Shown here piece after piece: positions 8,164 through 29,060 of a stretch of DNA of 64,000 nt (position 1 is its first letter; each line of letters opens with the position of its first letter). Below the pieces are notes generated by a model, which did no database searches, was not told the origin of the DNA, and saw nothing but the letters and a program-made list of their open reading frames with translations. Location: the IMG/VR virus record IMGVR_UViG_3300026549_002476; one strand, given 5' to 3'. This DNA comes from a virus (taxonomy: Duplodnaviria > Heunggongvirae > Uroviricota > Caudoviricetes). Both the position numbers and the translations under genes were made by a program.

Positions 8164-8187
8164 CACATAAACAATTAAAAAATATTT

Positions 8188-10983: not shown

Positions 10984-11706
10984 ATGTTTGGTATAGATGA
11001 TGCTAGAGTGACAGTTAATTCTTCTTTTAATGACTTTGAAGAGAATCATGAAGCTAGTGAGTATTTAGTTAAGAATTATAAATCTTTATTAAGAATCATC
11101 TATAAGAAGGGAATCACTGATAAGGCTTATGACCTGTTGGATGATGTTTATATAAGTCTTAAGCTCAGCGAAGAGAATAATGAAGGTTTTGATGCTGAGA
11201 GATTAAAGAAGGACGGGTCTAATGCTACTGTTGAGAGTTTTGTACAGGGAAGAATTTCTCTGTATTGTAAGAATGTAAAATACAGCAACATGTATGTTGA
11301 AACTTATGCAGGTAAAGATGAAAACATTACTGTTATAGCCGCAACTCCGGAAGAAGGAAATGAGGATAGCGATAGTGGTAACAATACCAACATTCAGTTG
11401 GCTATGAAAAACGCTTCTGTTGTTGATTCTTCTGTTGAAGAGTTCATTACTCTTAATAGTGTAAGAGCACAGATTGATACTTGCATTGATATAGGAAATA
11501 TTCGTGGACTTGATATGTTGAGCTTTTTCAAGAATATTGATAAAATAGCTGAATTGATGACTCACATGAATAAAAAGGACAACATATTTGACAAGCTTAA
11601 AGATGTTATTGCTAATAACAGTGACTTTGAAGCTAGCTTAATGGATGTGATGCAGTTTAGACAGGATCACAAGGATATATTCAATACAATAATAGCTAGT
11701 TACTGA
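10984..11706 (+). CDS. hypothetical protein, paralog of the next gene; possibly a sigma-factor region-2-like regulator
   Basis: RBS ggagg. Shares D-x-x-D-D-[VI]-[YF]-x-x-L…A-T-[VL]-E-S-F-V…N motif order with ORF 11735-12580, vaguely like sigma-70/ECF region 2. Confidence 0.35.
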   Translation: MFGIDDARVTVNSSFNDFEENHEASEYLVKNYKSLLRIIYKKGITDKAYDLLDDVYISLKLSEENNEGFDAERLKKDGSNATVESFVQGRISLYCKNVKYSNMYVETYAGKDENITVIAATPEEGNEDSDSGNNTNIQLAMKNASVVDSSVEEFITLNSVRAQIDTCIDIGNIRGLDMLSFFKNIDKIAELMTHMNKKDNIFDKLKDVIANNSDFEASLMDVMQFRQDHKDIFNTIIASY

Positions 11707-11734
11707 TATAATTCCTGCCGGGAGGGATGTTGTT

Positions 11735-12580
11735 ATGGCTATAATAAATGATGAGATCATAAGTGAAGTTTATGATCAATTCAGAGAGAATAAAGATACA
11801 GAAGAATCAAACCAAATTGACTGGAATAAAGATACAGTTAAATGGGCTTTGGGCAACGAAAATACCTTACAGAAAAAATTAGTTGGACAGCTTAGACAAG
11901 AAGGCAGAATCATTGATATAAGAAATGATTTTGATGATATATTCGATAATTTATTATTGACACTTTCCAAGAAGGATGAGTATGACCCATTTGTAGTGGG
12001 CAAACGAAGCAATAAATCAGCCACCTTGGAAAGTTTTGTTGTAAATACAGCTAAATATGTTGTACTTAACATGGAGAAAGAAAAATATAACAGAAAAGAA
12101 GATTTTTCTCTTAATGAAACTATAGGTGATCCCAATAAAGATGGGGTCAGGAATGAAAGAATAGATTTTGAAATAGATCATAAAACAAGCGATGTTTATG
12201 AAGGAATTATGGATGACTTAGACGCTTGTTGTAATGGAATTACAAGATATTGTAACTGTGGATCTGACATATTTGCTTTATTCTACATTCAACTGCTTTT
12301 GAAAAAACATGAAGTTGATGATCCAAAGCAAAAAATATTTTATGATATTTTGGAGGTTCTTGGCATGTCACAGACATCCATTAAGCAGATGCTTTGTAAT
12401 GGAAATACAGCTAATGAGTCTAAAGAACTTGCAAAGGCAATAACAACAGTGGATCAAGATACAGCATTGAGTGTATTAGCAAAGTATGTTTATGGGGCTA
12501 AGAGCATAGAACATATGGTTAAAGAAATACAGCGCGATCAAGAAATACAGCATGCTCAGATTCAAAAAGTCAATGATTAA
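11735..12580 (+). CDS. hypothetical protein, paralog of the previous gene; possibly sigma-factor-like
   Basis: RBS gggaggg. Shared motifs with ORF 10984-11706. Confidence 0.35.
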   Translation: MAIINDEIISEVYDQFRENKDTEESNQIDWNKDTVKWALGNENTLQKKLVGQLRQEGRIIDIRNDFDDIFDNLLLTLSKKDEYDPFVVGKRSNKSATLESFVVNTAKYVVLNMEKEKYNRKEDFSLNETIGDPNKDGVRNERIDFEIDHKTSDVYEGIMDDLDACCNGITRYCNCGSDIFALFYIQLLLKKHEVDDPKQKIFYDILEVLGMSQTSIKQMLCNGNTANESKELAKAITTVDQDTALSVLAKYVYGAKSIEHMVKEIQRDQEIQHAQIQKVND

Positions 12581-12625
12581 AAAATTAAAGACGAAAGGAA
12601 AATATGAATATAGATAGGACTTTTT

Positions 12626-12658
12626 AAGGTACCCAATAAAATTGGGTACCTTATTTTT
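12626..12658 (+). terminator. rho-independent terminator
   Basis: aaggtacccaat aaaa ttgggtacctt followed by atttttat. Confidence 0.75.
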
Positions 12659-12732
12659 ATGAGTTTATAACAATAAAAAATTTTATTTTAGCTTGTTAGT
12701 AAAAAGGGTGTTTATTTTTATATTTATTTAAG

Positions 12733-13179
12733 ATGTGGGGTGAAACAATGACATATCCTGAAATATATGATAGACTTAATTTTGAGACTTTTGTCTTATT
12801 CTTTTGTAAGCGAAACGGTGATATAAGAGTTATGCTTGCAACAAGAAATAGTGATACATTTGAATTAATTCAGGACAGTAATTCTGGGGATCTTATAATT
12901 AAACTTGAGCAACATGATAGAAGATGCAATATAAACAATGGGAATGTCGCTGTCATTGATCTAGAGATTAAAGATGCCAGAAGTTTCAATATTAACAGGC
13001 TAATACAGTGTTACAGTTATGGTATTGTAAATACCAAAGAGCAACTCGTAGAAGTCATGCATAAATATATGGAGTTAAAATTAAACTATGAAAACTACAT
13101 AAAGAAAATTACAAATGGCACTGAGGTGGATAATGATACGTATAATTCAGCAGCAGCTCAACAGGGACAAGAGAAATAA
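12733..13179 (+). CDS. hypothetical protein (alternative start 12748)
   Basis: ORF. The second in-frame ATG at 12748 has a better-spaced G-rich RBS. Confidence 0.4.
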   Translation: MWGETMTYPEIYDRLNFETFVLFFCKRNGDIRVMLATRNSDTFELIQDSNSGDLIIKLEQHDRRCNINNGNVAVIDLEIKDARSFNINRLIQCYSYGIVNTKEQLVEVMHKYMELKLNYENYIKKITNGTEVDNDTYNSAAAQQGQEK

Positions 13180-13192
13180 AGTTTATGAGAAC

Positions 13193-14035
13193 ATGGGGGC
13201 AATTACATTAAATCTTGATGTTGGGGAAGTGATCAAGGATATAGGATTTTTGGAAAGATATAAGCCCCATGGAAAAGCAGATTTAAAAAATGCAAGCAGA
13301 ATTTTGGATTATCTTGATAAAATTACTGATCTTGTAGACGAAAATTCAAATATAAGCATTACATGGAATAAGAGATACTATAACATTCCAGATAGCAGTC
13401 CAATAAGATTTATTGATGAACCATTATATAAGGTAAATACTTGTAATTATATTATTGTTCCACCAAAGAAACGAATTATAGAACTTGATATGATTGATTT
13501 AGCAGATTTAATGACTGCTGAAATTATGCAGAATGATTTATTTATTAATGATTCTGGAAATAATAATATGCAAGCTGTCAATAAGTATGCTGAAGAATTA
13601 CTGAAAGATTATAGTATCATAGGGGCTGTAGATAGCACTGAATTTTTAAAGAAGATAAGAGATGATAATCCAGAGGGAATTTATCAAATGAGCCGGTGGA
13701 TGAGGTTTAGCAGTTCACCATATTATAGTTATGAGATAGGAAGAAATTCAGTCTTTGGTAAAAGAGTTTTAAACAGCTATTTTTATGACGGAGCAAAGTT
13801 TGACGCTGAATATTATAATGAAGTTGTAGATTACTCATGTAAATATGCTAATTTCATTGTTGCAGATTATGTAATTGAAAACAATAAATTTGCAAAACTT
13901 ATAATGATTGGGCCAACACGTATAACATTTATGGTAGACGATGATAATATGGAATTAATAGATAAGAATGAAGATATTACTGTGAGAGCCTTTGGAAGAA
14001 ACTTTATAGTAAAGCCAAAGATCACGGTGTACTAA
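13193..14035 (+). CDS. hypothetical protein
   Basis: First ATG after the upstream stop at 13179. The ORF-track start at 13115 overlaps the previous gene. Confidence 0.4.
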   Translation: MGAITLNLDVGEVIKDIGFLERYKPHGKADLKNASRILDYLDKITDLVDENSNISITWNKRYYNIPDSSPIRFIDEPLYKVNTCNYIIVPPKKRIIELDMIDLADLMTAEIMQNDLFINDSGNNNMQAVNKYAEELLKDYSIIGAVDSTEFLKKIRDDNPEGIYQMSRWMRFSSSPYYSYEIGRNSVFGKRVLNSYFYDGAKFDAEYYNEVVDYSCKYANFIVADYVIENNKFAKLIMIGPTRITFMVDDDNMELIDKNEDITVRAFGRNFIVKPKITVY

Positions 14036-14046
14036 GGAGGTAAATT

Positions 14047-14649
14047 ATGGGAAAAACCGTATATGAACACTTTTCTTTCAGACGGCCTAAAGGAAAAGAT
14101 TACGGTTACTTTGCTGTTGCATTCTTCTGGGATTATAATGGTAAACCAAAGAACTTGACTGCACAAATGACTAGAAAATTAAAACTTTGGGATAAAGATG
14201 CACAGTTTGTAGCAGCTTGTCAATCTTATGAAAATGCCCTGTATGCCATATATAAATGGCAAGGTATCATGCGAAAGAATGGTATTACAAATGTAATGCT
14301 CGTTACTGATGATAGTGCTCTTGCTGGCTGGATTGAGGATATAAAAAAGAGCAAATTTTATAGGCCATGGATGGAGAAAGCTACAGAGCAATATAGAGTT
14401 GGAGCACCAAGAGAAATCACAATGTCTGTGGGGCTTTGTGAAGTCAGAGATTATGAAAAGGCTTACAAATTTTGTAAGGAAGAATATGTAGTAAATAATA
14501 AAAAAGCAGTTGAAATAGACAAGTCAACTGGCACAAGTGCTCTTGATCTTGGTGCACTTGGAGTTAAGATTAAGACTATCACAGACATTAAAAAAGAATA
14601 TGAGCCTGAAATTTCTGGTATGAAAGAGATAGATAAATTAGACGACTGA
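14047..14649 (+). CDS. hypothetical protein with possible RNase H-like fold
   Basis: Strong RBS aaggaggt. Order of conserved acidic residues (WDYNG … CQSYENALYAI … VTDDSALAGWIED) loosely parallels the RNase HI D-E-D arrangement. Speculative. Confidence 0.3.
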   Translation: MGKTVYEHFSFRRPKGKDYGYFAVAFFWDYNGKPKNLTAQMTRKLKLWDKDAQFVAACQSYENALYAIYKWQGIMRKNGITNVMLVTDDSALAGWIEDIKKSKFYRPWMEKATEQYRVGAPREITMSVGLCEVRDYEKAYKFCKEEYVVNNKKAVEIDKSTGTSALDLGALGVKIKTITDIKKEYEPEISGMKEIDKLDD

Positions 14650-14700
14650 TATAATAGCCGATATATTTATTGAAATAAAAAATAAAATCGGAGGTTTGTC

Positions 14701-15822
14701 ATGGCAAGAGCAGGTGGAGGAAGCCATAGTAGTGGAGGAAGCCATAGTAGTAGCAGCAGTAGTTTCCATAGCAGCAGTAGCGGCGGACACAGCTATAGTT
14801 CTTCCCATGGCGGTGGACATACATTTGGGTCTAGTAGTTATTCAAGTTATCATACTGGAAGAGCTGGAGGAGGATCAAGTTCAAACCATAATTATGGAAC
14901 TGGGTATTCATCTAGGCATGATGGAGACGTCTATGTGCATAATGACTATTATAATTATGGTAGACCAGGATATAGTTATGGTCGGTCTGGAACACCAATT
15001 AATATAATCAGAACAATAATATTTGTCATAGTATTTATAGCTGTACTTATTACAATTTCAAAAGCATTTACAGCATTTAGTAGTGTTCCGAGTTCAACTA
15101 TTGAAAGAACTAAGTTAACTAATGTTCCAGATTATAATTATAATTGCATATTAGATGAACTTGGATATTTTGATGATACACATAAAGCTGCTAAGGGAAT
15201 TAAGAAATTTTATGATGAGACTGGTATACAGCCTTATATATACATCAAAGATTATGATCCATCTCTAACAACAAATGATGAAAAAGAGCAATATGCATTG
15301 AATTTCTATGATGAGAATATAGGAACAGACAATGGATTTTTGTTCATTTATTTTGCAAATGAAGATGAACATGCTGACATAGATGATTCTGATAAATCTA
15401 TTGGATATATGGCATATGCTTGTGGAAATTCTGCTAATACTATACTTGATGATGAAGCTATGAATATCTTCTGGGCATATATAGATAGCTATTGGGTATC
15501 CGATTTATCTATGGAAGACATGATGAATAGGGTTTATACAAACACAGCTGATTCAATAATGACTGTTAATAAAACAAGTGGCCAATTAACAAAAATGTTA
15601 GTTATCGGAATTGTTACAGTTGTTGGACTCATAGTTTTAGCTATTGTAATAAATACAAAGAGAAAGGCCGAAGCAGAGAAAGCTCAACATACTCAAGATA
15701 TATTGAATACACCTTTGAATGGGGTTGATAATTATAGTGGATTTAATCATCCTAATAGAAATGATCCTTTGGAAACTGATAGTTCTAATGGAAACAGCGA
15801 TATAGTGAATAAGTATTTGTAA
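14701..15822 (+). CDS. membrane protein with Gly/Ser/His/Tyr-rich low-complexity N-terminus and two predicted transmembrane helices
   Basis: RBS ggaggt. N-terminal SHSSGGSHSS repeats, then hydrophobic segments IIRTIIFVIVFIAVLITI and MLVIGIVTVVGLIVLAIVI. Confidence 0.5.
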   Translation: MARAGGGSHSSGGSHSSSSSSFHSSSSGGHSYSSSHGGGHTFGSSSYSSYHTGRAGGGSSSNHNYGTGYSSRHDGDVYVHNDYYNYGRPGYSYGRSGTPINIIRTIIFVIVFIAVLITISKAFTAFSSVPSSTIERTKLTNVPDYNYNCILDELGYFDDTHKAAKGIKKFYDETGIQPYIYIKDYDPSLTTNDEKEQYALNFYDENIGTDNGFLFIYFANEDEHADIDDSDKSIGYMAYACGNSANTILDDEAMNIFWAYIDSYWVSDLSMEDMMNRVYTNTADSIMTVNKTSGQLTKMLVIGIVTVVGLIVLAIVINTKRKAEAEKAQHTQDILNTPLNGVDNYSGFNHPNRNDPLETDSSNGNSDIVNKYL

Positions 15823-15832
15823 AGGTTAAGCA

Positions 15833-16993
15833 ATGCTTGTATTAAAAACAATTAACATAGATGGTGATATATTTTATCAGTGTAAGTTAGATAGGGGATT
15901 TGAAATTCATAATGAGTCTGATAATATAAACGTATTTTTTAAAAATAAAGATGATATTGAAAAATTAAGTTATCCCGAGGTAGGCAGCAATGACAAAAGA
16001 AATTATAGTGTTTACTCTGATGATGAAGTAATAAACGAGTATAATATAATAAAAGCAAAATGTAGAATGCTTGGATTAAATTATATTGAACTTGATGATC
16101 ATTGTATAGCTTATGATTGTGGGGATGAAACAAGAATAACAGGCTTGTTAGAGTTAGATAGCCCAAAACTTTATTTTAAGGATGACCAGGATGAGATAGA
16201 ATGGTTCAGAGATAAAAATGTTAAATCCTGTAAATTGAAGATAGTTGAATCTATTGGATTGTTTGAAAACTTTTGGATGCTAAGATTAGCAAATTCTATT
16301 GATTTTTCTAAAGATATAGAGTACAGGCCAAAAAAGTTATACAAAGGATTTTTAAAGTGTAAAGCTTATAAAATAGATTTAACTGGTATAGATATTGAAG
16401 ATTGCTACTCATTAGAGTCTACTTTTGAAGGATGCCGTAATTTAATATGGTTGAACATATCAAATTGGGATACAAGTAATGTAGAGTCAATGAAAAGAAT
16501 GTTTAGCGTGTGCAGGAATATCAAGAGATTAAACTTATTAAATTTTAGCACTCATAAAGTAAAAAAGATTGAAGGCATGTTTGAGTATTGTCAGAAGTTA
16601 ATTGCACTAAATACAAGCAATTTTGATCTGGATAACACAATGTTAAGCAGCATAAGGAAAATGTTTAATTGTTGCACAGAAATTAAAGATATAGAGTTAG
16701 GAGTTGTATCTTTAAATGAAAGTAAATCAGCATTTGGAATTTTCGATGGTACTGAACTTAATACAATCAAATTAAGAATACCAAATAATAATGCATTAGT
16801 TACATTACATAAACTATTAGATCAATATGGTGTTGCTAAAATAACAGCTAAGTTAGATGAAAATGGAAAATTAGTTGTAAGCACAAATGGTAAGCTAATA
16901 CGCATAAGTAATGTTGGTGAACAGTATAAAATAACATTTAGTCATTACAAATTAGATGAAAATGGAAAATTAGAATTGATAAATAATGGATAA
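15833..16993 (+). CDS. BspA-type leucine-rich repeat (LRR_5) protein
   Basis: Repeating segments such as FEGCRNLIWLNISNW / FSVCRNIKRLNLLNF / FEYCQKLIALNTSNF / FNCCTEIKDIEL, typical of BspA-like LRRs. Confidence 0.55.
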   Translation: MLVLKTINIDGDIFYQCKLDRGFEIHNESDNINVFFKNKDDIEKLSYPEVGSNDKRNYSVYSDDEVINEYNIIKAKCRMLGLNYIELDDHCIAYDCGDETRITGLLELDSPKLYFKDDQDEIEWFRDKNVKSCKLKIVESIGLFENFWMLRLANSIDFSKDIEYRPKKLYKGFLKCKAYKIDLTGIDIEDCYSLESTFEGCRNLIWLNISNWDTSNVESMKRMFSVCRNIKRLNLLNFSTHKVKKIEGMFEYCQKLIALNTSNFDLDNTMLSSIRKMFNCCTEIKDIELGVVSLNESKSAFGIFDGTELNTIKLRIPNNNALVTLHKLLDQYGVAKITAKLDENGKLVVSTNGKLIRISNVGEQYKITFSHYKLDENGKLELINNG

Positions 16994-17066
16994 TGTAATT
17001 TAATTTTTAAATTAAATTATCAAATATAGCATAGACATTAAAGAATAAATGGAGGAATAATAAACT

Positions 17067-17744
17067 ATGGCTAATATTCTTAGTAGGTTTGGAAGTATCA
17101 TGAGTGCAAACATTAATGCACTCCTTGATAAGGCAGAGGATCCTGAGAAGATGATTGATCAGAACCTTCGTGAGCTTCGTGAAGACCTTGCTGAAGTTAA
17201 GGAGCAGACAGCCGGTGTTATGGCTGATGAGAAGGCAGCTGCTAGAAAGCTTGAGGAGTGCAAGAAACACATCGCTGACTGTGAAAGAGCTCAGGTAAAT
17301 GCTGTTAAAGCTGGAGATGATGATGGTGCTCGGGCAATTATTTCGGAAAAGCTTCATTATCAGGGAAATCTTCCTTCACTTCAGCAGACTTATGATGTTG
17401 CACATGCTAACTCTGAAAAGATGAAGGCTATGTACAATAAGCTTGTTGGTGATATTAATCAACTTGAGTCTCGTAAGGATGCAATCAAGGGAAAGATTGC
17501 AGTAGCTAAGGCAACTGAGAAGGTCAATAAGATGACTTCCAATGCATCTAAAGCCAATTCTTCTATCGAAGATTTTGATAGGTGGGAAGATAGGGCTAAT
17601 AAGATGCTTGACAAGGCAAATGCTGAGACTGAACTTAACCAGCAGGATATAGCAGCTGAGGATTATGTTACAAAGTACAAGGATAGTACTGACTTTGACG
17701 TAGAAGCAGAACTTGCTAAGACAAAAGCAAGTCTTGGAATGTAA
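17067..17744 (+). CDS. pspA: PspA/IM30 family protein (phage-shock protein A / LiaH-like)
   Basis: Strong RBS atggaggaat. N-terminus MANILSRFGSIMSANINALLDKAEDPEKMIDQNLRELREDL closely matches the PspA N-terminus ([28 protein letters not shown]…), with a coiled-coil remainder. Confidence 0.85.
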   Translation: MANILSRFGSIMSANINALLDKAEDPEKMIDQNLRELREDLAEVKEQTAGVMADEKAAARKLEECKKHIADCERAQVNAVKAGDDDGARAIISEKLHYQGNLPSLQQTYDVAHANSEKMKAMYNKLVGDINQLESRKDAIKGKIAVAKATEKVNKMTSNASKANSSIEDFDRWEDRANKMLDKANAETELNQQDIAAEDYVTKYKDSTDFDVEAELAKTKASLGM

Positions 17745-18218
17745 ACAAAAATTTAAAAACTTAAAAACTTAATAGGAACTAGTTGATGTACGGATGATGC
17801 TTGATAAAATAGGTATCATCCATATGTAACTGTGATGTAACATTAGATTATAGGAGATATAATTTATAGTGTTTAGCCCAAGTATATTTTTAAGTACTTG
17901 GGCTAATTTCATGCAATGACAAATTTAGAATAAAGGTATATTTTTAAGAAAGAATAATATGTTTTGTGTTTGTCAGCAATTTGTATAAAAACTTGAATAT
18001 TATAATAAAATATAAAGTGAAATAAATATATATGCAACTGTTAATTGATTTTTAATTAGCTGTAAACAATTTTAAGTAAACGAATTAGAATTGGAGAATG
18101 AACATGAAAGTCATAATTTTTGAAGTGAATATGCTGGATACCAGTTTTGCATAAAATAGCAGATGAAGATAATTAAAACACTATTAGCATAAATTAAAAT
18201 CATTGTGGAGGTACTTAA

Positions 18219-18647
18219 ATGGAATGGGTATACACAGATGGTGGTAGAAAAGCAGCTGGTTTTAAAGGTGAAGCACGTGATTGTGTTTGTAGAGCAGTTG
18301 CAATTATTACTGGACTTCCATATAAGGAAGTATATAATACAATTAATAAATTAGCAAAAGAAGAAAAATTAAAACCTGGTGAAAGAAAGAGCTCAGCAAG
18401 AACTGGTATTAGTAGAAGTTTAACAAGAACAGTAATGGCTTATTATGGATTTGAATGGGTTCCAGTAATGAAAATAGGAAGCGGTTGTACAATGCATCTA
18501 AGAAGGGAAGAATTACCTAAAGGGAGAATTATAGCAAATTGCTCTGGGCATGTGGTAGCTTGTATAGATGGTGTTGTATATGATACTTTTAATAGTACCA
18601 GAGGTGGAACTAGATGTGTTTATGGGTATTGGTATAAACGGTATTGA
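18219..18647 (+). CDS. hypothetical protein; possible Cys/His peptidase-like
   Basis: RBS gtggaggt. Conserved-looking Cys (ARDCVCRAV), His (CSGHVVAC) and Asp (VYDT) in that order. Speculative. Confidence 0.35.
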   Translation: MEWVYTDGGRKAAGFKGEARDCVCRAVAIITGLPYKEVYNTINKLAKEEKLKPGERKSSARTGISRSLTRTVMAYYGFEWVPVMKIGSGCTMHLRREELPKGRIIANCSGHVVACIDGVVYDTFNSTRGGTRCVYGYWYKRY

Positions 18648-18728
18648 AGATGGATACTGCATCATTGGGATGCAACCACGAGGATGGAATTATATAGGGT
18701 TAGCACAGGCAGAAAGTGAGGATAAGGA

Positions 18729-19184
18729 ATGACGAATGAACAAGCAAAGAAGATGCTCAAAGCAAAGTTGGAGTGCTTAAAGCGTGAAACAAGCGGAACA
18801 GATTTTGATTGCAATAATAGTAATTGTGATGAATGCTCATTATGCTATGAACAGGGCAATATGGGGGAACAGAAAGAAGCACTTGATATGGCAATCAAGG
18901 CATTAGAGCAACAGCCTTGTGGGGATTGTATCAGCAGAGAAACGGCGAGAAGAATAGTGGATAGTGGAAGAACAAGGCAACAAATGATTGACATGATACT
19001 TGCCACTCCACCCGTCATACCACAGCCGAAGATTGGGCGGTGGATATTTGTTGATAAAGCAAAAGAACACGCACATTGTTCTGAATGCGATTATGGAGAT
19101 GTAGATTTATTTAATGGTAGACCACATAATTATTGTCCTAACTGTGGAGCAAAGATGGAAAGTGAGGAAAGGAATGACTCATGA
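18729..19184 (+). CDS. Cys-rich zinc-ribbon protein, C-terminal Y-C-P-N-C-G-A-K-M motif
   Basis: RBS gtgaggataagg. CSEC…YCPNCGAKME tail shared with small proteins at 37.6-41.5 kb. Confidence 0.45.
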   Translation: MTNEQAKKMLKAKLECLKRETSGTDFDCNNSNCDECSLCYEQGNMGEQKEALDMAIKALEQQPCGDCISRETARRIVDSGRTRQQMIDMILATPPVIPQPKIGRWIFVDKAKEHAHCSECDYGDVDLFNGRPHNYCPNCGAKMESEERNDS

Positions 19185-19398
19185 ATTAAAGGTTCTTTCA
19201 GAGTATTATTGGAAAATTCCATGTGAAAAGAAAACTTTTGAATTGCGTAAAGATGATAGAGATTACAAAGTAGGTGACATTCTTGACTTAAAAGAATGGG
19301 ATGGTGAAAAATTTACTGGGCATCATGTACGCCGTGAAATAACCTACATCTTACGAAATTGCAAACAATATGGTATTGAAGATGGATCTAACTGGTAA
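19174..19398 (+). CDS. DUF3850-like (ASCH-related) small protein
   Basis: RBS gaggaaagg upstream of the ATG at 19174. KKTFELRKDDRDYKVGDILDLKEWDG…GHHVRREITYIL resembles the DUF3850 signature. Confidence 0.45.
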   Translation: MTHELKVLSEYYWKIPCEKKTFELRKDDRDYKVGDILDLKEWDGEKFTGHHVRREITYILRNCKQYGIEDGSNW

Positions 19399-20815
19399 AG
19401 AATTTGGGGATTGGAAAGTTTTGCATAAAGCAGAGAAGGATCGATACTGGACTTGTCAGTGTAAATGTGGTACAGTAAAAGACGTATTAGATTACTCTCT
19501 AAAAAGTGGTAAATCAAAATCTTGTGGTCATTGTAATAATCCATATATTCATGCAGGAGATAAGTTTAATCATTGGACAGTTTTAGGCTGGGATAAAGAT
19601 AGAAATACATGGAAATGTCAGTGTGACTGTGGAAATATAGGATATGTTAGTGCAACGTCTTTAGTTAAGGGTTACTCAAAGTCATGTGGCTGCCAGCAAG
19701 GAAAATTAAGGGCAGTAACTATGATAAGTCGTTATGGTGAAACGGCTACTAATAAAGTAAACAGCCAATGTATTCGTGATGGATGGCAAGCTGAAACCAT
19801 GTATGACAAGGATAGACTGAAAGAATTTATAGTTAACCTTGGATATAAACCAACAATTGAAGATTTGGCTAATTTACTTGGAGTTCAGAGAGCAGCAATG
19901 CTGAAAAGAATAAATACACTTGAACTAAGGGATTATATAAACTTTGAGCATGACTATGCCAAATCAAATGGCGAAGATGAACTTTTAGAATATATAAAGA
20001 GCATATGCAATAAAGAGATAAAGACTCATGTAAAAGATGTAATTAAACCATATGAGTTGGACATTTATATGCCAGAATTAAACCTCGCATTTGAGTTTAA
20101 TGGAGATTATTGGCATAGTGAAGTATTCAAAGATAAGAAATATCATCAAAATAAATTTCTCATGTGTACTAAGAAAAACATTCAACTTATACAGATTTTT
20201 GAGAATGAATGGGAGCTTAACAGAGATAAAATTGAAGCTTATATCAAAGATAAAATAAACCCTGAACATGTGTTATATGCTAGGAAATGTAAAGTAAAAT
20301 ACATAGATTCAAAAGATGCTGTAGATTTTGAGAACTTATATCATATAAGCGGCGGAGTAACTGCAGCAATTAATCTTGGAATTTATTATAATGACAAGTT
20401 AATCGGAGTAATGACTTTTAATAAATCAAGGTTTAACAGTAATTATCAGTATGAAATAATAAGAAGCTGTTATAAGGCTGGATATATAGTTGTTGGCGGA
20501 TCAGAAAGAATGATCAAGCAGTTTATAAAAGATTACAAGCCAAGAAGCATAGTAAGCTACTGTGATTTAAGCAAGTTTGTGGGTCTATCTTATTTGCACA
20601 TGGGATTTAAAATGAACCGAGTTACAGAGCCTAATTATGTTTGGATGAATTTAAACAACTCAGACATTAGAAGTAGATACCAGTGCATGAAGCAGAAATT
20701 AATAAAAAATGGTTGGGGTACAGAAGACCAAACTGAAAATGACATTATGCATAATCACGGGTATACAAAGATTTGGGGTTGCGGAAACGCAGAATATGTT
20801 TGGGTGGATGAATAA
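19370..20815 (+). CDS. multi-domain protein: two tandem Cys-rich zinc modules (W-x-C-x-C-x-C-G…S-C-G-[CH]) plus a Vsr/DUF559-like PD-(D/E)xK nuclease-like core and a further C-terminal domain; paralog of the next gene; possible free-standing homing-endonuclease-like element
   Basis: Repeats WTCQCKCGTV…SCGHC and WKCQCDCGNI…SCGC. YELDIYMPELNLAFEFNGDYWHS resembles Vsr/DUF559 cores. Collinear similarity with ORF 20818-22545. Confidence 0.4.
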   Translation: MVLKMDLTGKEFGDWKVLHKAEKDRYWTCQCKCGTVKDVLDYSLKSGKSKSCGHCNNPYIHAGDKFNHWTVLGWDKDRNTWKCQCDCGNIGYVSATSLVKGYSKSCGCQQGKLRAVTMISRYGETATNKVNSQCIRDGWQAETMYDKDRLKEFIVNLGYKPTIEDLANLLGVQRAAMLKRINTLELRDYINFEHDYAKSNGEDELLEYIKSICNKEIKTHVKDVIKPYELDIYMPELNLAFEFNGDYWHSEVFKDKKYHQNKFLMCTKKNIQLIQIFENEWELNRDKIEAYIKDKINPEHVLYARKCKVKYIDSKDAVDFENLYHISGGVTAAINLGIYYNDKLIGVMTFNKSRFNSNYQYEIIRSCYKAGYIVVGGSERMIKQFIKDYKPRSIVSYCDLSKFVGLSYLHMGFKMNRVTEPNYVWMNLNNSDIRSRYQCMKQKLIKNGWGTEDQTENDIMHNHGYTKIWGCGNAEYVWVDE

Positions 20816-20817
20816 GG

Positions 20818-22545
20818 ATGGAAAGTAAAAAGAAAAGATTAACTTCAAAAGACATAATAGGACATAGATTTGGAAGGCTTGTAGCTTTGTCATATGCTGG
20901 AGATGGCAAATATTTGTGCCAGTGTGACTGTGGAAATAAGAAGTTAATTGCCACATATAGCCTTACAAGTGGAGCAACACAATCTTGTGGGTGTTTAAGG
21001 CGTGAAGTAACTAGTAAAACTATGATGAAATATGATTTAACCGGACAGACATTTGGTGAATGGACTGTTATAGCTCATCATGGATCAGGCAGTTTATGGT
21101 TATGTCGATGTAGCTGTGGAAAAGAAAAACTTATAGCTGCAAGCCATTTATTAAGTGGAATTACAAAATCTTGTGGACATAATACAACGGGATTTAAGGA
21201 TTTAACAGGACAAAAATTTGGCAGACTTACAGTAATTAGTTACAATGGGCATAGAAGTTGGCATTGTAAGTGTGATTGCGACAGAGAGACTGATGTAGTA
21301 ACAGATAATTTAATTAATGGTCGAACTACATCTTGTGGGCATCATCTAAAGAACGAAGATCAGTTTATAGATATATCTGGAAGAACGTTTGGATACTTAA
21401 CAGCTATTAAATATGTTGGTGGAAATAAGTGGCTATGCAAATGTATTTGTGGAAATTATACTATTAAAGATTCACAGCATTTAAGAAGATCTGATACTAT
21501 ATCATGTGGGTGTAAAGAACCTAAAAAATGGACTGAGGATGAAATAATAGAAAAAATAAATGAATATATAAAGATAAATGGGGAAAGACCATATAGATAT
21601 GACTTATGTTCTTTGTTGAATCTTTCACATACTTCTGTAGAAAGATGGATACAAAGGTATAATTTGTATGAATATATTGGATCAACTTATAGAAGCAGAT
21701 ATGAAGAAGAAATAAATAAAATGTTTCCAACTAATTTTGTTAATGATAGGCATGAAATACCTGGGTATGAACTAGATCTATATTATCCAGAGCAGAGAGT
21801 AGCAATAGAGTTCAATGGGAATCTATGGCATTCAGACAGATATAAGGATAAAAATTATCATAAGAATAAAGCAATAACTTGTGGAAAAAATAATATAAAG
21901 TTAATAAGTATATTTGAATACGAGTGGGAAGATCCAAACAAAAAATCTAAAATTATTAATCTAATAAAAAGAGAACTTAACATAGATAAACCGAATATTA
22001 TATATGGAAGAAAAACTTATATACATACAATAGATAGTGACACAGCTAAAAATTTTCTTGAATTATATCATATAGATGGCAATGCAACATCTAGTATTCA
22101 AGTAGGGATGTTTTTTGATAATGAACTAATAGGGGTTATTACTCTTGGGAAACCAAGGTTTAATAATAAATATGAGTATGAAATAATAAGATTGTGTTGG
22201 AAAGATAATACAGCAGTTATTGGTGGGACTAACAAATTAATAAGATATGTTATTAAAAAATATAATATAAAATCTTTAATAACATATGCAGATTTATCAA
22301 AGTTTAATGGAATGTCCTATAAAAAGTTTGGGTTTAAAGTAGATGGTATAACTGATCCTAATTACATATGGTGGACATCTAATGGAAATGAAGTATTAAC
22401 AAGATATCAAACTCAAAAACATAAATTAATTCAATTAGGACTTGGTAAAGCAGATGAAACAGAAGAAGAAATCATGACAAAAATGGGATATAATAAAATA
22501 TATGATTGTGGCAATATGAGGTATACATGGATTAGAAATAATTAA
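20818..22545 (+). CDS. paralog of the previous gene with four Cys-rich zinc modules plus the same nuclease-like and C-terminal domains
   Basis: Four repeats of about 48 aa, each with a (D)LTGQ-FG-(R)L-T-V-I…W-x-C-x-C-x-C-G…S-C-G-[CH] pattern. YELDLYYPEQRVAIEFNGNLWHS core. Confidence 0.4.
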   Translation: MESKKKRLTSKDIIGHRFGRLVALSYAGDGKYLCQCDCGNKKLIATYSLTSGATQSCGCLRREVTSKTMMKYDLTGQTFGEWTVIAHHGSGSLWLCRCSCGKEKLIAASHLLSGITKSCGHNTTGFKDLTGQKFGRLTVISYNGHRSWHCKCDCDRETDVVTDNLINGRTTSCGHHLKNEDQFIDISGRTFGYLTAIKYVGGNKWLCKCICGNYTIKDSQHLRRSDTISCGCKEPKKWTEDEIIEKINEYIKINGERPYRYDLCSLLNLSHTSVERWIQRYNLYEYIGSTYRSRYEEEINKMFPTNFVNDRHEIPGYELDLYYPEQRVAIEFNGNLWHSDRYKDKNYHKNKAITCGKNNIKLISIFEYEWEDPNKKSKIINLIKRELNIDKPNIIYGRKTYIHTIDSDTAKNFLELYHIDGNATSSIQVGMFFDNELIGVITLGKPRFNNKYEYEIIRLCWKDNTAVIGGTNKLIRYVIKKYNIKSLITYADLSKFNGMSYKKFGFKVDGITDPNYIWWTSNGNEVLTRYQTQKHKLIQLGLGKADETEEEIMTKMGYNKIYDCGNMRYTWIRNN

Positions 22546-22561
22546 ATTATAGAGGTTGTGT

Positions 22562-25500
22562 ATGTATAGTAAAGGTAAATTTCATTCAAAAGGTAAAGAT
22601 TATGATGCTCTCGTAAATTACACGAAGAGTAGGACAGAAGTCCTGTTAATATCAAAAGGAACTATTGTATCAGCTTACAAAACTGATAAAACTGGGAATT
22701 ACAGCTTTGCAAGTATGGCTGCTCAGGATTTATTTAAGGTGGTATCAAAAGGTCTTGGCTATTGTAACTCTAAGAATGGAACACCTATGCCATTCGTTGG
22801 GTTAGGAGCAGTAACTAGACATGAGTTTAGCAAGATGAAGCTACACTATGATATTACTGAAATTAACCATGAGCTTGTGGAATGTGACATATCAAATAAT
22901 GAGACAGATGACAATGGAAGTTCTAAAATGACTCTTAATTTGTCTCATATTGATAAAGCTATTATTCCAAATAACATTGCATATGTTAAACTTACTGAAG
23001 TAAAAGATGTAAAAACTGTAGAAAATGCTGAAGAAGACCTTGACAATATAGTTACACGAAGTATTGAAGAGATTGCTCTAACTAAGGAAGACGGTGGAGC
23101 ATGGCTTAAGAACAAGAAATACTATATTGTCAATGATGACGCAACAGCTGAGCAGATTTTTGAATACCTTGACAATTATGATGGTGCTATTGCATATGAT
23201 ACAGAGACTACAGGGTTAAAGATTAACTGCTTTGGTAAAGTTGGTTCACATTATGAAAAGGAATTAGCAGAATATAATGCAAGTCACCCTGATGAAAAGA
23301 TTCGTGAGGACCGGCTTGTTGGGATTATTTTCTGTGTTGAACCGAATGTGAGCTATTATTTTCCAGTGTTTAACAGAAAGTTTAAGAATCTATATCAGGA
23401 TTTAAACAGTCCAATCCGTAAGAAAACTGTAGAGATCATTAAAGCAAGATATACAATTGGCGAGTTTAGGGATAGAGATTCTGACATGGCTAATTACATC
23501 AGAAACACCCCAGAGAATGAGTGGAGACTTGATGTAATTCTGATGGAACGTGTCAGAGATATTTTAAGCAAGAAGCATATTGTCACACATGGCGGAATTT
23601 TTGAGTGGCGCGTTGGATGGACTTATGAAATTGATACAAATATCTGCGATGACACGATGATTATTCATCAGTTAATTTATAAGTTTAGAAGTACAACGAG
23701 CAATGCAGGTGAGCCTTCTAACCTGAAGTATCTAGCTAAGCATGATCTTGGTGTTGACCAGTGGGAATTAAAGGATTTCTTCCCGAATTTCAAGGCTGAC
23801 GATACCGGACTTGTTAAAGAGCGTAAAGATGGTAAAGGGCCTAAAAAGGGAAGTAGAATTGATTTCTCATATATGGATTATGCTGGTACACAGATTTATG
23901 CACCAGCTGATGGAGACATGACTCTCGAGTTGTATTTGAAGTACAAGAAAGATATGCTTGAACATTTTAAGGACTTTGAGTATATCTATAATATTGAGAT
24001 TATTGTAACTTGTGCCATGGGTTATGTTGAGTTTTATGGACATAGAATTAATGAGAGTAAGATCAATGGTGCTCGTTTACAGACTGCCGCTGAAATAGTA
24101 GATGTAGAAGAGCAGATTAGACAAGCTATTAATTATGCTAGCCAAGATGAAATAAATGTACATAATCAGTTAAAGACGGCTATGACTGAGGCTGAAAAAG
24201 GCGATGTAAACGATCCAGCTATTTCTGGCAAGCTTGACGGGTTAGCTAAAAAACTTAGAGAAACAATTGATGCAAATACAGATCATGCTTTAAACATCAA
24301 TTCACCTGCACAGGTAGCTGCATTATTCTTTGATGTACTTGGTTATCCCGATCCAGATGGAAAGAGATCAGTGAGCAAGAAGGTTTACAAAGGTCTTGCA
24401 AAGGAAGTTGGGGATGACGGTAAACTGAAGTATCCAATCGCTGGTTTATATCAGAAATACAAGGCTAAGGTAACACTTCAAACAAAATTCTTTGATCAAT
24501 TGCAGTATTTCCAGTATCCAGAGGGGTTGATTTTTTCTGATTTTGGTCAGATCAGTACTGCTACAGGCCGTATGAGTTGCAAACATCCAAATTGCCAGCA
24601 GTACCCTAAAGTTATTACCAAGATCGTTGAGCCAAGACCTGGATACATTATGTTGGATGCTGATTATTCACAGATTGAGTATCGTGTCCTTACAGCATTA
24701 GCTCATAACTCTGGATTAAGAGAACTGTTTAGTAGTCCTGATAGTGATTATCATACACTTATGGCTTCTCTAATGTATGGTGTTCCATATGCAAGCGTGA
24801 CACCACAGATGAGATCATCTGCAAAGAGTTTCAATTTTGGTATACCATATGGCATGGGCTTTAAGTCATTAGCAATATTACTTCATGGAAACGCATCTCC
24901 AGAATCAGTAGATGACGCAAAAGTCAAATATGAAATGTATTTTAAGAACCAGCCAAACACTCGCAAATTCTTTGATAATGTTAAGGAACAAGCTCAGGTG
25001 TATGGATATACTAAAACAGCATTTAATCGTAGGAGATATTATAATTTTACATCAAAAGATGGAACAGTTAATAATGCAAAAAAGGCAGCAGCATTAAGAC
25101 AAGCAGGTAACGCTGTTATTCAAGGATGCCTCAGTGGTGAAACTAGGATACAAACGAAAGAATTAGGTATCATTAAAATTAAGGATGCAGTCAATACACA
25201 TCTACATGTATGGGATGGTAATACCTGGGCAGAAGGAGATGTACTTTATTCAGGAAAGAAACAGAAGTGCATTGTTACATTCAGTAATGGACAAAAGTTC
25301 ATTTGCAGTCCAATTCATAAGTTTCTTGTGAAGAGCCATAAGGGTAATACCAGGTTTGTAGAGTGTAAGGATCTGTTAACCAAAGCAAATTCAAAGAACC
25401 CTCATAGGATTGTGATTAATCCTAAGTATGAGAAGTCTGATTTTGTTTATTCTAGCAATTGGGCTAGAAGATATGATGAAATTAGTAACAATGCTAATAA

Positions 25501-27274
25501 TGCACATTTAGATGATGCAGATAACTCTTTTGATGCAGGAGTTGTACTTGGAAGACTGGCATCAGTTGGTACAATTGGAAAAAGAGAAGAAGGCGCATCT
25601 TACATTTTAAACTCTGTAGCAGAACATGAGAAGAATATAGTTCCTGAATTGAGAAGATGTTTGAGCTTTTACGGAGATGTAAAGGAACATATATTAAATA
25701 GAGAAGGCAAGAATGAGGCTATAGATAGAATGTACATTTATAGCAAGTCTCTTGTTGACGAAGTAAGCGAGCTTGATATTAAGCACCATATTAGCGATTT
25801 AATATTCCAAGACACTGAAATGCTTAGAGGTTTTTTGAGGGGAATATTTGATGGCGATGGCGGAATCATGGGAAAAACGATCACTTTGACTTTTGGTAAG
25901 CAGAGCGATTTTACAGAGTACATGAGAGATATTCAGAAGGCTCTTGCATTTTTTGGTATTAGAAGCAGAATATATGAATTTAAAGACTGCTATCATGTTA
26001 CAATTAAAGAGAATGATAACAATAGATTTTTGGACCTTATTGGATTTATGAATAAAGACAAGCAGGATAAAAGGGATGACATACAGCCAATTAGAGATGA
26101 GCATATTTTTGGAAGAATCCTTATTCCTGAATCCGTAGAGATCACTGACGAATGGATTGACATGTATGATGTGTGTAATACAACTAATGGTTACTATGTA
26201 GCTGACGGAATTGTAACACATAACACAGCTGCTGATATTTTTAAAATCAGCCTTGCTCGTAATTTTACATTTATTAGAAATCATAATCTTTATGGTAAAT
26301 TGTTAATTATAAATCTTATTCATGATGAGCAACTTATGGAAGTAGATGTGCAGCATTTAAATGCTCAGAGGATACTTGCAGAAGTTGGAAGAAACATGCA
26401 GTTCAGCTTGCCAGAGTTTCCACCTTTGTACATTGGTGCAGGTATTGGTAAAGCTTGGGGCACTGCTAAAGGCAAGATGGCAGAGATTCATCCGCTCTTG
26501 CTTGAGCAGTATACTAAAGAAGCTGAGAATATTCCGATTGAGAGAGCTGAAGCAACTTGGAATGATCCTAATAAAGTAATTGAGTACTTTGATGATAGAA
26601 ACTTAGAATTCAGACGTAAGAAAGTAGCTGATTACATTACAGATCCAAGCCATTGGAATCAGCCATTACACCCTGCAATTGGTGGTCTAATCAATCTTCA
26701 GTTTAATTATGGACGTGGTGGTGATGCTAAGGCTTATGTAGATGAAAATGGAAATCATGTGACAGATGCAGAATTTCTTGAAATGAACTTAGCAGACTTC
26801 ATTAAAGAAAATGGATTAAATGTTGATCCACATACATTCTTTGAGGACAAAGATCAAGTTCAGGCTGAAACACAAGATGAAGAAGAAGACAAAGAATACG
26901 ATGACGATGATGATGAAAATCCAGATGACATTGCAACATCAATTAGTGACGACCCAGATAAGGTATTTTCAGTAGTTGATGAATCTGATAAAACATTTGG
27001 ATCCTCTCTTCAAGACATTATATCTGTGTTTGGATGCTGTTTATTGGAAAATCAAAGAGTGTGTGGTATTGATTTAAGAGGTATGAGTAACAAAGGACGT
27101 AATAGCATGATTGATGCTATTTGTGAGTATGTATGTGAACCAACAGATAGTAAGGGATTACAGCTTGTGTTTCTTAAAGACGGAAACATCCTAGATAAAA
27201 CAGGGGTTTATGTTTCTGGAATCAATGGTTCTACAGCTGAAGCTGAATACAAGAAATTTAAAGCTTTACACTAA
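22562..27274 (+). CDS. polA: DNA polymerase I-like family A polymerase (3'-5' exonuclease plus polymerase), intein-containing, with about 300-aa acidic/Cys-containing C-terminal extension
   Basis: RBS agagg plus ATG at 22562. Exo motif IAYDTETTGL. Pol motifs LDADYSQIEYRVLTAL (A), KSFNFGIPYGMG (B), NAVIQG/TAADIFKISLA (Taq NMPVQGTAADLMKLAM), LIHDEQLMEV (C). Confidence 0.9.
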   Translation: MYSKGKFHSKGKDYDALVNYTKSRTEVLLISKGTIVSAYKTDKTGNYSFASMAAQDLFKVVSKGLGYCNSKNGTPMPFVGLGAVTRHEFSKMKLHYDITEINHELVECDISNNETDDNGSSKMTLNLSHIDKAIIPNNIAYVKLTEVKDVKTVENAEEDLDNIVTRSIEEIALTKEDGGAWLKNKKYYIVNDDATAEQIFEYLDNYDGAIAYDTETTGLKINCFGKVGSHYEKELAEYNASHPDEKIREDRLVGIIFCVEPNVSYYFPVFNRKFKNLYQDLNSPIRKKTVEIIKARYTIGEFRDRDSDMANYIRNTPENEWRLDVILMERVRDILSKKHIVTHGGIFEWRVGWTYEIDTNICDDTMIIHQLIYKFRSTTSNAGEPSNLKYLAKHDLGVDQWELKDFFPNFKADDTGLVKERKDGKGPKKGSRIDFSYMDYAGTQIYAPADGDMTLELYLKYKKDMLEHFKDFEYIYNIEIIVTCAMGYVEFYGHRINESKINGARLQTAAEIVDVEEQIRQAINYASQDEINVHNQLKTAMTEAEKGDVNDPAISGKLDGLAKKLRETIDANTDHALNINSPAQVAALFFDVLGYPDPDGKRSVSKKVYKGLAKEVGDDGKLKYPIAGLYQKYKAKVTLQTKFFDQLQYFQYPEGLIFSDFGQISTATGRMSCKHPNCQQYPKVITKIVEPRPGYIMLDADYSQIEYRVLTALAHNSGLRELFSSPDSDYHTLMASLMYGVPYASVTPQMRSSAKSFNFGIPYGMGFKSLAILLHGNASPESVDDAKVKYEMYFKNQPNTRKFFDNVKEQAQVYGYTKTAFNRRRYYNFTSKDGTVNNAKKAAALRQAGNAVIQGCLSGETRIQTKELGIIKIKDAVNTHLHVWDGNTWAEGDVLYSGKKQKCIVTFSNGQKFICSPIHKFLVKSHKGNTRFVECKDLLTKANSKNPHRIVINPKYEKSDFVYSSNWARRYDEISNNANNAHLDDADNSFDAGVVLGRLASVGTIGKREEGASYILNSVAEHEKNIVPELRRCLSFYGDVKEHILNREGKNEAIDRMYIYSKSLVDEVSELDIKHHISDLIFQDTEMLRGFLRGIFDGDGGIMGKTITLTFGKQSDFTEYMRDIQKALAFFGIRSRIYEFKDCYHVTIKENDNNRFLDLIGFMNKDKQDKRDDIQPIRDEHIFGRILIPESVEITDEWIDMYDVCNTTNGYYVADGIVTHNTAADIFKISLARNFTFIRNHNLYGKLLIINLIHDEQLMEVDVQHLNAQRILAEVGRNMQFSLPEFPPLYIGAGIGKAWGTAKGKMAEIHPLLLEQYTKEAENIPIERAEATWNDPNKVIEYFDDRNLEFRRKKVADYITDPSHWNQPLHPAIGGLINLQFNYGRGGDAKAYVDENGNHVTDAEFLEMNLADFIKENGLNVDPHTFFEDKDQVQAETQDEEEDKEYDDDDDENPDDIATSISDDPDKVFSVVDESDKTFGSSLQDIISVFGCCLLENQRVCGIDLRGMSNKGRNSMIDAICEYVCEPTDSKGLQLVFLKDGNILDKTGVYVSGINGSTAEAEYKKFKALH
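25127..26224 (+). mobile_element. intein (366 aa) with LAGLIDADG homing-endonuclease domain, inserted between Q-G and T-A-A-D of the polymerase
   Basis: In frame with polA. Begins CLSGET and ends VTHN followed by Thr. Internal FLRGIFDGDGGI and DAGVVLGRLASVG LAGLIDADG-type blocks. Extein halves re-join into the conserved PolA motif. Confidence 0.8.
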
Positions 27275-28376: not shown

Positions 28377-29060
28377 ATGAGATATAACATTAAATGTGAA
28401 CCATTTCCAATAGTTGTATGCAATTTAAGTGATGGCGAGGAAATTATTACTGAAAGCGGAGTGATGGTTTGGATGTCTCCTAACATGGAGATGCAAACAC
28501 AAGCTGGTGGTATAGGTGGATTCTTTTCAAAAACATTATCTGGTGAACATGGATTTACTAATACTTATGTATCACATGGAAAAGGATTAATTACACTCGG
28601 AAGTCACTTTGCAGGACAAATAGTAGATATTGATATAACACCAGAAAAAGATTTTATACTTCAAAAAGGTGCTTTCTTAGGTATGGAATCTGGGGTCAAC
28701 ATGTCAATATTTTTCAGACCAAACCTTGTGACAGGAAGCTTTGGTGGTGAAGGGTTTATAATGCATAGACTTTCAGGGAACGGAAAAGTTTTTGCAGAAG
28801 TAGATGGGTCTTTGGTTAAATATCAGTTGGAACCAGGACAGCAGATGATAGTTAGCACAGGACATGTTATAGGTATGGATTCAACTGTTATAATGGACAT
28901 TAAAACAGTTGCAGGGTTGAAAAATAAATTGTTTGGCGGATATGGATTTTTCAATACTGTTTTAACTGGGCCAGGAGTTATTTATTTGCAGACAATGCCA
29001 ATTAGTAAGTTAGCAAGATCTATTATTCCATACTTACCAAGAGATGACAGTAAATATTAA
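28377..29060 (+). CDS. AIM24/TIGR00266 (DUF124) family protein
   Basis: Gly-rich repetitive beta pattern (GGIGGFFSK…GEGFIMHRLSGNGKVFAEVDGSLVKYQLEPGQQMIVSTGHVIGMD…GGYGFFNTVLTGPGVIYLQTMP) typical of this family. Confidence 0.6.
   Translation: MRYNIKCEPFPIVVCNLSDGEEIITESGVMVWMSPNMEMQTQAGGIGGFFSKTLSGEHGFTNTYVSHGKGLITLGSHFAGQIVDIDITPEKDFILQKGAFLGMESGVNMSIFFRPNLVTGSFGGEGFIMHRLSGNGKVFAEVDGSLVKYQLEPGQQMIVSTGHVIGMDSTVIMDIKTVAGLKNKLFGGYGFFNTVLTGPGVIYLQTMPISKLARSIIPYLPRDDSKY

Follow-up and report, generated by a model that had tools for sequence, protein, structure and literature searches.

The founding member of the Hef group, U5 Hef, is encoded by a gene that replaces mobE in the slot between nrdA and nrdB, and was reported as a site-specific homing endonuclease that cleaves nrdB, near its own locus (PMC2988022). 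The Vsr-like 'EDxHD' homing endonucleases, to which Taylor et al. (2011) already added the 'bacteriophage Hef type homing endonucleases', have I-Bth0305I as their prototype, an enzyme whose double-strand cleavage requires dimerisation (PMC3239194). Fusions of a Mom-like domain with a restriction endonuclease-like (REase) domain were described in jumbo phages by Iyer, Anantharaman, Krishnan, Burroughs and Aravind (2021), who interpreted them as restriction-modification-like enzymes with no mention of Hef or homing (PMC7824862). Here we describe two adjacent open reading frames, ORF A and ORF B, located immediately upstream of polA in a 64,000-nucleotide stretch of DNA (the window) from a virus of the Caudoviricetes, IMG/VR record IMGVR_UViG_3300026549_002476. 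Both are likely, in our judgement, to be members of the Hef family of free-standing homing endonuclease genes, situated in an intergenic hot spot upstream of polA.

ORF A (19370..20815, 481 aa) and ORF B (20818..22545, 575 aa) are located on the plus strand, as are all other features of the window described below, with a gap of 2 nt between them and of 10 nt between the stop codon of ORF B and the start of polA. They match phrog_3339, annotated as 'homing endonuclease', ORF A with an E-value of 7e-92 (residues 17-479) and ORF B with 1.7e-81. The two proteins were aligned collinearly by BLASTP at 36% identity over 518 columns (E 3e-105), in agreement with an earlier note on this DNA, made from the letters alone, which had described two adjacent collinear paralogs. 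The order of domains is the same in both, consisting of Cys modules, a helix-turn-helix (HTH) region, a nuclease block and a C-terminal domain. The motifs quoted in the earlier note were all located, including YELDIYMPE...AFEFNGDYWHS in ORF A and YELDLYYPE...AIEFNGNLWHS in ORF B, LYHISGG and LYHIDGN, ...RF and YEIIR, and so was the intein-containing polA beside which it had placed the pair, the downstream ORF at 22556..27274 being a family A polymerase with a LAGLIDADG domain.

Neither ORF is truncated, and each carries every conserved residue of the nuclease and GNAT domains. An identical pair of A and B genes was found in independent samples, and the homologs of ORF B number at least 4720. 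A third copy of A or B was absent from the window when searched by tblastn with both proteins. A recent tandem duplication was rejected, the cores of A and B being 47% identical to each other and 50-57% identical to proteins from other genomes. On this comparison A and B are old paralogs or separate arrivals, neither being the closest relative of the other. On an identical metagenomic contig, the gene callers place the start of ORF A at an ATG four codons later, giving a protein of 477 aa. The annotated start at 19370 overlaps the 3' end of the upstream DUF3850 gene (19114-19398) by 29 nt.

The core formed by the nuclease and GNAT domains was detected by tblastn in 416 phage records, of which 405 cover at least 80% of it. 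Most of these records are labelled as homing endonucleases or Hef-like homing endonucleases, and the annotations include '(putative) Hef-like homing endonuclease', 'Hef58', 'Hef85' and 'homing endonuclease', together with 'putative nuclease/acetyltransferase protein' in several Acinetobacter phages. The HTH, Vsr-like nuclease and GNAT core of A and B is common to Hef-like proteins such as Hef85 of Campylobacter phage NCTC12673 with its 10-11 paralogs, the F-Lim genes of LIMEstone and gp181 of the T4-like phage vB_EcoM_G8, and probably also to U5 Hef. The core of Hef85, which its GenBank record describes as similar to U5 Hef (ABI48935), is 41% identical over 281 aa. The G8 gene gp181 is located between nrdA and nrdB, and its product showed 30% identity over 338 aa (E 5e-33) spanning the HTH, nuclease and GNAT regions. 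As with A and B, the Hef-like genes are free-standing, adjoin conserved genes and are often present in several copies per genome, with 10-12 copies of the core in each of the Campylobacter Fletchervirus phages. The carrier of A and B differs from the described Hef-bearing phages in being an unclassified and largely novel gut-type phage.

The differences from the known Hef proteins are concentrated at the N-terminus. Hef85 (L001 871-2325) carries an array of four CxxC...CxxC zinc-ribbon units, in contrast to the CxCxC...CG[HC] modules of A and B, and G8 gp181 carries one Cys cluster and helical repeats of the 'KYG' type. Since the arrays of Hef85 and of A and B are of different types, it is therefore suggested that Hef-family enzymes recruited small zinc modules more than once. 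The jumbo-phage Mom-REase fusions of Iyer et al. very probably belong to the same family as A and B, the two-domain core being present in Deifobo (at five places), RaK2 and the Lak phages, and these authors differ from us in interpretation only. The earlier note was unable to place A and B in a family by eye, but the family already carries the name Hef or EDxHD, and Mom-nuclease fusions have likewise been described (PMC3239194, PMC7824862). By these comparisons, ORF A and ORF B appear to be new additions to the known and widely annotated Hef/EDxHD family, and this family appears to be the same as that of the Mom-REase fusions. One and the same core has been described under two names, as a homing endonuclease and as a 'momylation-restriction' fusion, and no cross-citation between the two bodies of literature was found in the papers compared. 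Naming two 'hypothetical' genes of an uncultured phage as Hef-type homing endonucleases is routine as an annotation, if instructive.

The Vsr-like EDxHD nuclease domain occupies 19979..20257 in ORF A (residues ~204-296, with the motif at 229) and 21688..21975 in ORF B (residues ~291-386). Neither direct comparison with Pfam, which did not recognise the YELD...EFNG..WH block, nor a search of PDB with a single sequence, which gave noise only, identified the domain. A profile built from 47 family members, however, matched the catalytic domain of I-Bth0305I (PDB 3r3p_A) with an E-value of 1.7e-6, profile columns 330-423 being aligned with residues 7-97 of the chain. In this alignment E296, D320, N333 and H338 of ORF B are paired with E170, D196, N208 and H213 of I-Bth0305I, and these residues are conserved in 95%, 99%, 98% and 100%, respectively, of 120 homologs. 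All are present in both proteins, the series being E229, D231, E242, N244, H249, H259 and K262 in ORF A and E296, D320, E331, N333, H338, H348 and K351 in ORF B. The Vsr/PD-(D/E)xK-like nuclease proposed in the earlier note is thus supported by the profile match and by the retained catalytic E, D, N and H.

The structure predicted by AlphaFold2 (AF2) for the nuclease domain of ORF B, with a predicted local distance difference test (pLDDT) score above 95, has the order alpha-beta-beta-beta-alpha-beta-alpha. Its elements (H10-18, E23-26, E35-39, E44-49, H63-73 and E77-82) agree with a restriction-endonuclease-like core, and the top-50 lists of both fold searches with the two-domain model contained GNAT-fold entries only. 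I-Bth0305I has a modular layout like that of A and B, with DNA-binding repeats and an HTH on the N-terminal side of a nuclease core that has the aligned E, D, N and H. It differs in being intron-encoded and 266 aa long, in carrying NUMOD repeats and no GNAT, and in having D222 at the position where the family of A and B has an invariant His. The same 'YH' in place of the final Asp is found in the T4-like protein of the Hef slot. The nuclease clade of A and B is, as judged from the alignment, an E-D-N-H-H variant of EDxHD.

PHROG labels of 'HNH endonuclease' for A and B were rejected, there being no HNH match in Pfam for either protein at E <= 1. One family so labelled, phrog_559, matches the Vsr-like and GNAT core (profile 306-602 of 607), and another, phrog_374, matches A and B through the common Cys modules only. 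The label of phrog_559 is probably wrong, and it will spread further through the annotation of phages.

The C-terminal domain, which the earlier note had recognised as a further conserved domain and left unplaced, has the fold of a Mom-like GNAT acyltransferase. It extends over 20267..20812 in ORF A (residues ~300-481) and 21994..22542 in ORF B (residues ~393-575, including H418, E455, R458, G469-G470, D492, K495 and Y501). The scores with the Pfam Mom model PF25680 were 24.1 bits for B and 19.3 bits for A (E 1e-3), both below the gathering cut-off of 27.1, and some homologs carry a precomputed PF25680 match. The 'Mom-like' family phrog_1384 was matched by B with an E-value of 2.9e-12 and by A, whose domain is homologous to the modelled domain of B, with 5.6e-6. 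The sole NCBIfam match, of ORF B to XF1762_fam (E 1.4e-7), was sub-threshold. Single-sequence comparison with Mu Mom aligned only 24-50 residues, and global hhalign gave a poor alignment with 8.6% probability. Local profile-profile comparison was needed, and against 111 true Mom sequences it gave 89.7% probability and an E-value of 1.8e-6 over 130 columns, ending at Mom residue 177. In two fold searches Mom (PDB 8bv8) was the best PDB match to this domain, with 205 Mom columns aligned by Foldseek. In the AF2 model two helices (~534-539 and ~549-555 of B) lie between the C-terminal strands; the HTH-like insertion of Mom, required for its activity, lies between the last strands and occupies residues ~175-209.

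Mom of phage Mu transfers glycine from Gly-tRNA to adenine N6 in double-stranded DNA. Its functional residues (PMC13219725, PMC7261163) include the essential S124, the S124A mutant being catalytically dead. With moderate alignment confidence, Mom H58 corresponds to H418 of ORF B (100% in the 120 homologs), R111 to R458 (99%), D149 to D492 (87%, with N in 11%) and Y159 to Y501 (100%). An equivalent of E108 is also kept, and H418, E455, R458, K495 and Y501 are all conserved in 99-100% of the homologs. As R111 is conserved across Mom homologs and not across GNATs (PMC7261163), the retention of R458 is therefore a specific link of the family to Mom. In contrast, S124 of Mom corresponds to position 472 of B, where E, Q or N accounts for 87% of the homologs (E in 68%, Q in 12%, N in 6%) and Ser for 4%; Y59 corresponds to position 419, with L or I in the family; and the position of R151 is occupied by S or A, adjoining the invariant K495. 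The GNAT of A and B also differs from Mom in being fused to a nuclease and DNA-reading modules and in having no com-type regulator. Lacking the essential Ser124, the domain is not simply Mom. Rather than a Mom orthologue, it is a GNAT related to Mom in which most of the active site facing the base is retained and one catalytic residue is missing. With Mom-like active-site residues kept and the catalytic Ser missing, the function of the GNAT is a clear and testable question.

AF2 modelled the nuclease and GNAT domains as one rigid unit, with a pLDDT of 95.2 and a predicted template-modelling score (pTM) of 0.90. As the GNAT is rigidly packed on the nuclease and is conserved as strongly, it presumably contributes something essential. 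An alternative to the homing model is a single-chain weapon of the restriction-modification type, in which the GNAT would 'momylate' adenines of the phage's own DNA and the REase-fold domain would attack unmodified DNA of the host or of competitor phages. The Cys modules would then set a specificity common to both activities, and homing would play a secondary part, if any, in the spread of the genes. Such a role was proposed by Iyer et al. for the jumbo-phage Mom-REase fusions, with five copies in PA5oct (PMC7824862), and the five places matching the core in the PA5oct-like phage Deifobo are probably of the same family. The conservation of the GNAT, equal to that of the nuclease and including the H58, R111, D149 and Y159 equivalents, and the pTM of 0.90 would suit this proposal, and several divergent copies per genome would suit several specificities. 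The replacement of Mom's essential S124 by E, Q or N and the sub-threshold Pfam Mom score argue against it, no PADLOC defence model was matched, and U5 Hef, the founding member, is site-specific and cuts near its own locus (PMC2988022). Together with the evidence from the modules and from the locus given below, these points make the weapon quite unlikely as the primary function.

Alternatively, the GNAT could be a pseudo-enzyme without remaining transferase activity, an exapted fold serving the nuclease as a structural, dimerisation or DNA-clamping platform, which would be a sub-variant of the homing model. The loss of the S124 and Y59 equivalents and the rigid packing against the nuclease would be expected of such a platform; I-Bth0305I dimerises for double-strand cleavage (PMC3239194), Mom is an obligate dimer (PMC13219725), and I-Bth0305I, an EDxHD enzyme with no GNAT, is active. 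The conservation at the positions equivalent to the Mom active site, 99-100% for H418, E455, R458, K495 and Y501 and 87% for D492, nevertheless exceeds the usual need of a scaffold, and the Arg specific to Mom is kept. We regard the pseudo-enzyme as improbable. In another protein, P0013 (953 aa), two Hef-like units are fused head to tail, of which the first keeps the modules, HTH and nuclease and has lost most of the GNAT. This protein may represent a natural experiment on the function of the nuclease without GNAT.

The N-terminal part of each protein is composed of Cys modules, predicted to be zinc-binding DNA-reading units. Two modules were found in ORF A, at 19394..19531 (residues 9-54) and 19556..19693 (residues 63-108), and four in ORF B, at 20860..20994 (residues 15-59), 21043..21180 (residues 76-121), 21208..21342 (residues 131-175) and 21379..21513 (residues 188-232), the last module of each protein being of the terminal type with an SCGC end. 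This motif scan, with a core of 45-46 aa and a period of 54-61 aa, reproduces the two versus four copies counted in the earlier note. By a six-frame scan of the whole window, the CxCxC...[ST]CG[CH] core was confined to ORF A and ORF B. Recent expansion of the array was ruled out, Tandem Repeats Finder detecting no module-length tandem repeat in the DNA under the arrays; the module repeats are therefore taken to be old and diverged, visible at the protein level only.

Alignment of 536 modules from 122 family proteins gave the consensus DL.G..FG.W.V..Y.G...W.C.CSCG....V....L..G...SCGH, in which the CxCxC and C-G-[HC] positions are invariant and variability peaks between the two Cys clusters. The number of modules per protein ranges from 2 to 10, while the nuclease motif is always followed by 252-263 aa up to the C-terminus, suggesting that a variable reader is attached to a catalytic core of fixed size. 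Pfam and NCBIfam contain no model matching the module, which was detected in 109 phage records. The same GxxFGxLTV...WxCxCxCG...SCG[CH] modules are present at the N-terminus of other proteins without the Vsr-like and GNAT core. They precede an HNH-annotated nuclease domain in the enzymes matched by phrog_374, Enterococcus phage Porthos gp117 and Rhizobium phage RHph_I1_23 gp006 (phrog_3377, E 8e-62), and an AP2 domain in phiCDHM11 gp28, where the AP2 match is weak and under the Pfam threshold. Being abundant, uncatalogued, combinatorial (2-10 per protein) and attached to at least two nuclease types, the CxCxC...CG[HC] module is a candidate modular unit of DNA recognition.

In the AF2 model of ORF A residues 1-235 (pLDDT 89.3), each module consists of three short strands and a helix, module 1 being modelled with a pLDDT of ~95, and the modules are followed by a helical linker containing the HTH. 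The linker of ORF A (19694..19978, residues ~109-203) is predicted to form helices at 110-122, 138-145, 147-156, 163-170 and 174-183, with a weak MarR match at residues 162-195. The HTH linker of ORF B (21535..21687, residues ~240-290) showed weak Pfam HTH_28 and HTH_23 matches at 254-282, and the family profile weakly matched sigma-70 region 4 and SarA HTH proteins. Tandem-Tudor and LytTR look-alikes of the N-terminal model were rejected as not significant, the best E-value being 0.27 by Foldseek against PDB. An array of 2-10 DNA-reading modules together with an HTH would imply long and rare sites, typical of homing rather than restriction enzymes, and this argues further against the weapon.

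The genomic location of the genes was compared among relatives, which were found via PolA in the protein database and whose contigs were then inspected, flanking synteny being established and copy numbers verified by tblastn. Two scans of IMG/VR for relatives by PolA, one with a single sequence and one with an alignment, detected none. The number of Hef-like genes immediately upstream of polA is zero in L009 and L010, one in L006 and L011, two in the window and three in L005; one such gene is found downstream of polA in L010 and in L005 and none in the other four. In L009 the conserved upstream gene is separated from polA by a spacer of 175 bp, and the same interval in the window is an island of 7.9 kb. 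In L006 the endonuclease gene is located inside this spacer, and a conserved element close to polA follows downstream of it. The earlier note had named the absence of these genes from the same locus in relatives as a signature of homing, and syntenic relatives do carry 0, 1, 2 or 3 copies upstream of polA. Its reading of the pair as homing-endonuclease-like is also favoured by the core, which is ~40% identical to those of Hef-like homing endonucleases. This sporadic distribution adjoining a conserved gene appears as expected of free-standing homing endonuclease genes, and presence or absence at one intergenic site beside a conserved essential gene is a further point against the weapon.

In this phage lineage polA is a hot spot for mobile elements, including inteins and free-standing LAGLIDADG genes. 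The polA gene of the window (22556..27274, 1572 aa; Pfam DNA_pol_A and LAGLIDADG_3 on an identical contig) contains one LAGLIDADG intein, and that of L005 (13753-20089) has two intein-like insertions and a free-standing LAGLIDADG gene. In L009 a free-standing LAGLIDADG gene divides polA (8001-13217) into two ORFs. In L011 (8001-11909) it is split into parts of 672 and 490 aa by a gap of ~400 bp in which no gene was called; this gap could be an intron. The polA gene of L010 extends over 8001-14134, and that of L006 is uninterrupted and encodes 1354 aa. The start codon of polA in the window is TTG.

The tight packing before polA, with gaps of 2 nt and 10 nt, raises the question of whether A and B are domesticated or decaying remnants, once homing endonucleases that have lost the ability to cut and that either serve as site-specific DNA-binding regulators of the polA operon today or are in the process of being lost. 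For many free-standing endonuclease genes in T4-like phages, cleavage is not known to have been demonstrated (PMC2988022). Neither ORF is shortened, however, and the two keep all the conserved catalytic residues of both domains, and the identical pair recurs in independent samples. In addition, relatives with zero copies have an intact polA locus, so that no essential regulatory role is apparent. We therefore consider the remnant explanation extremely unlikely.

Repeated motifs containing GAGAGAC are present just 5' of polA in L009 (~7930-7990), L006 (~11710-11760) and L011 (~7880-7990). They are kept in genomes with and without an endonuclease gene, and in L011 they form a reiterated unit of ~19 bp, GAGAGACAATAAGTTAAAT. 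The motif was not seen in the 10-nt junction between ORF B and polA of the window. These motifs may have a regulatory function in the polA operon.

For A and B as homing endonucleases of the Hef family, the following mode of action can be proposed. The array of Cys modules, two in A and four in B, would read a long DNA site together with the HTH, probably in or near polA in those related phages from which the gene is missing. The Vsr-like EDxHD domain would cut there with Mg2+, probably in dimeric form like I-Bth0305I. In a mixed infection the break would be repaired from the gene-bearing genome, so that the recipient would acquire the endonuclease gene along with adjoining polA markers. As a best guess, the GNAT would engage, and possibly acylate, the target base, aiding recognition or protecting the genome of the carrier.

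Several observations weigh against this interpretation. D222 of I-Bth0305I (D97 of Vsr), the fifth EDxHD residue, is aligned with His348, which is invariant in 120 of 120 homologs. The Cys modules, predicted to bind zinc and DNA, have no solved structural neighbour, no PDB entry matching the N-terminal model at E <= 0.001 by Foldseek. The relatives compared are 55-76% identical in PolA, and at this distance the comparison captures neither a recent gain or loss of the genes nor a co-conversion tract. The upstream interval of the window is an island of 7.9 kb with other cargo, including PspA, DUF285, DUF3850 and other ORFs, and the site may be one of general plasticity and not a specific target. 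A target site for A and B could not be predicted. The restriction-modification-like role proposed by Iyer et al. also stands against it. Finally, the classical homing model gives no role to a conserved and apparently functional GNAT domain. An extension of the homing model that would give it one is that an active GNAT places a bulky acyl or aminoacyl mark in the endonuclease's own site, forming a 'poison plus antidote' element that cuts naive genomes and immunises the carrier. We consider this self-marking unlikely; if true, the arrays of 2-10 modules would represent a modular, possibly decodable system of DNA recognition common to cutting and marking.

The variable island of the window (14650..22555) lies between a conserved gene of ~200 aa (14047-14649) and polA, as defined by tblastn synteny and gene tables, and contains ORF A, ORF B and six other accessory ORFs. 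One of these ORFs (17067-17744) encodes a PspA/IM30 family protein (Pfam E 1.7e-34), a membrane-stress or membrane-remodelling protein that is unusual as phage cargo, and another (15833-16993) contains a DUF285 domain of the Mycoplasma-type repeat (E 2.9e-16). All of the at least 50 sizeable ORFs of the window are on the plus strand, with a strong positive GC skew and a GC content of ~32%. Eight of the 10 largest proteins scanned were without a match in PHROG at E <= 1e-8, the anaerobic ribonucleotide reductase NrdD (33393-35945) being the sole one recognised by name. Comparison of the 10.5-kb region by megablast with 50,697 phage records gave no match at the DNA level. Some of the homologs are binned as metagenome-assembled genomes of Lachnospiraceae. 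The window belongs to a poorly charted phage lineage with a genome of ~116 kb, and its habitat is probably the anaerobic gut. Downstream of polA, a protein of the AIM24 family (Pfam E 1.5e-61) is encoded at 28377-29060 and one of the Band_7/SPFH type at 31563-32444.

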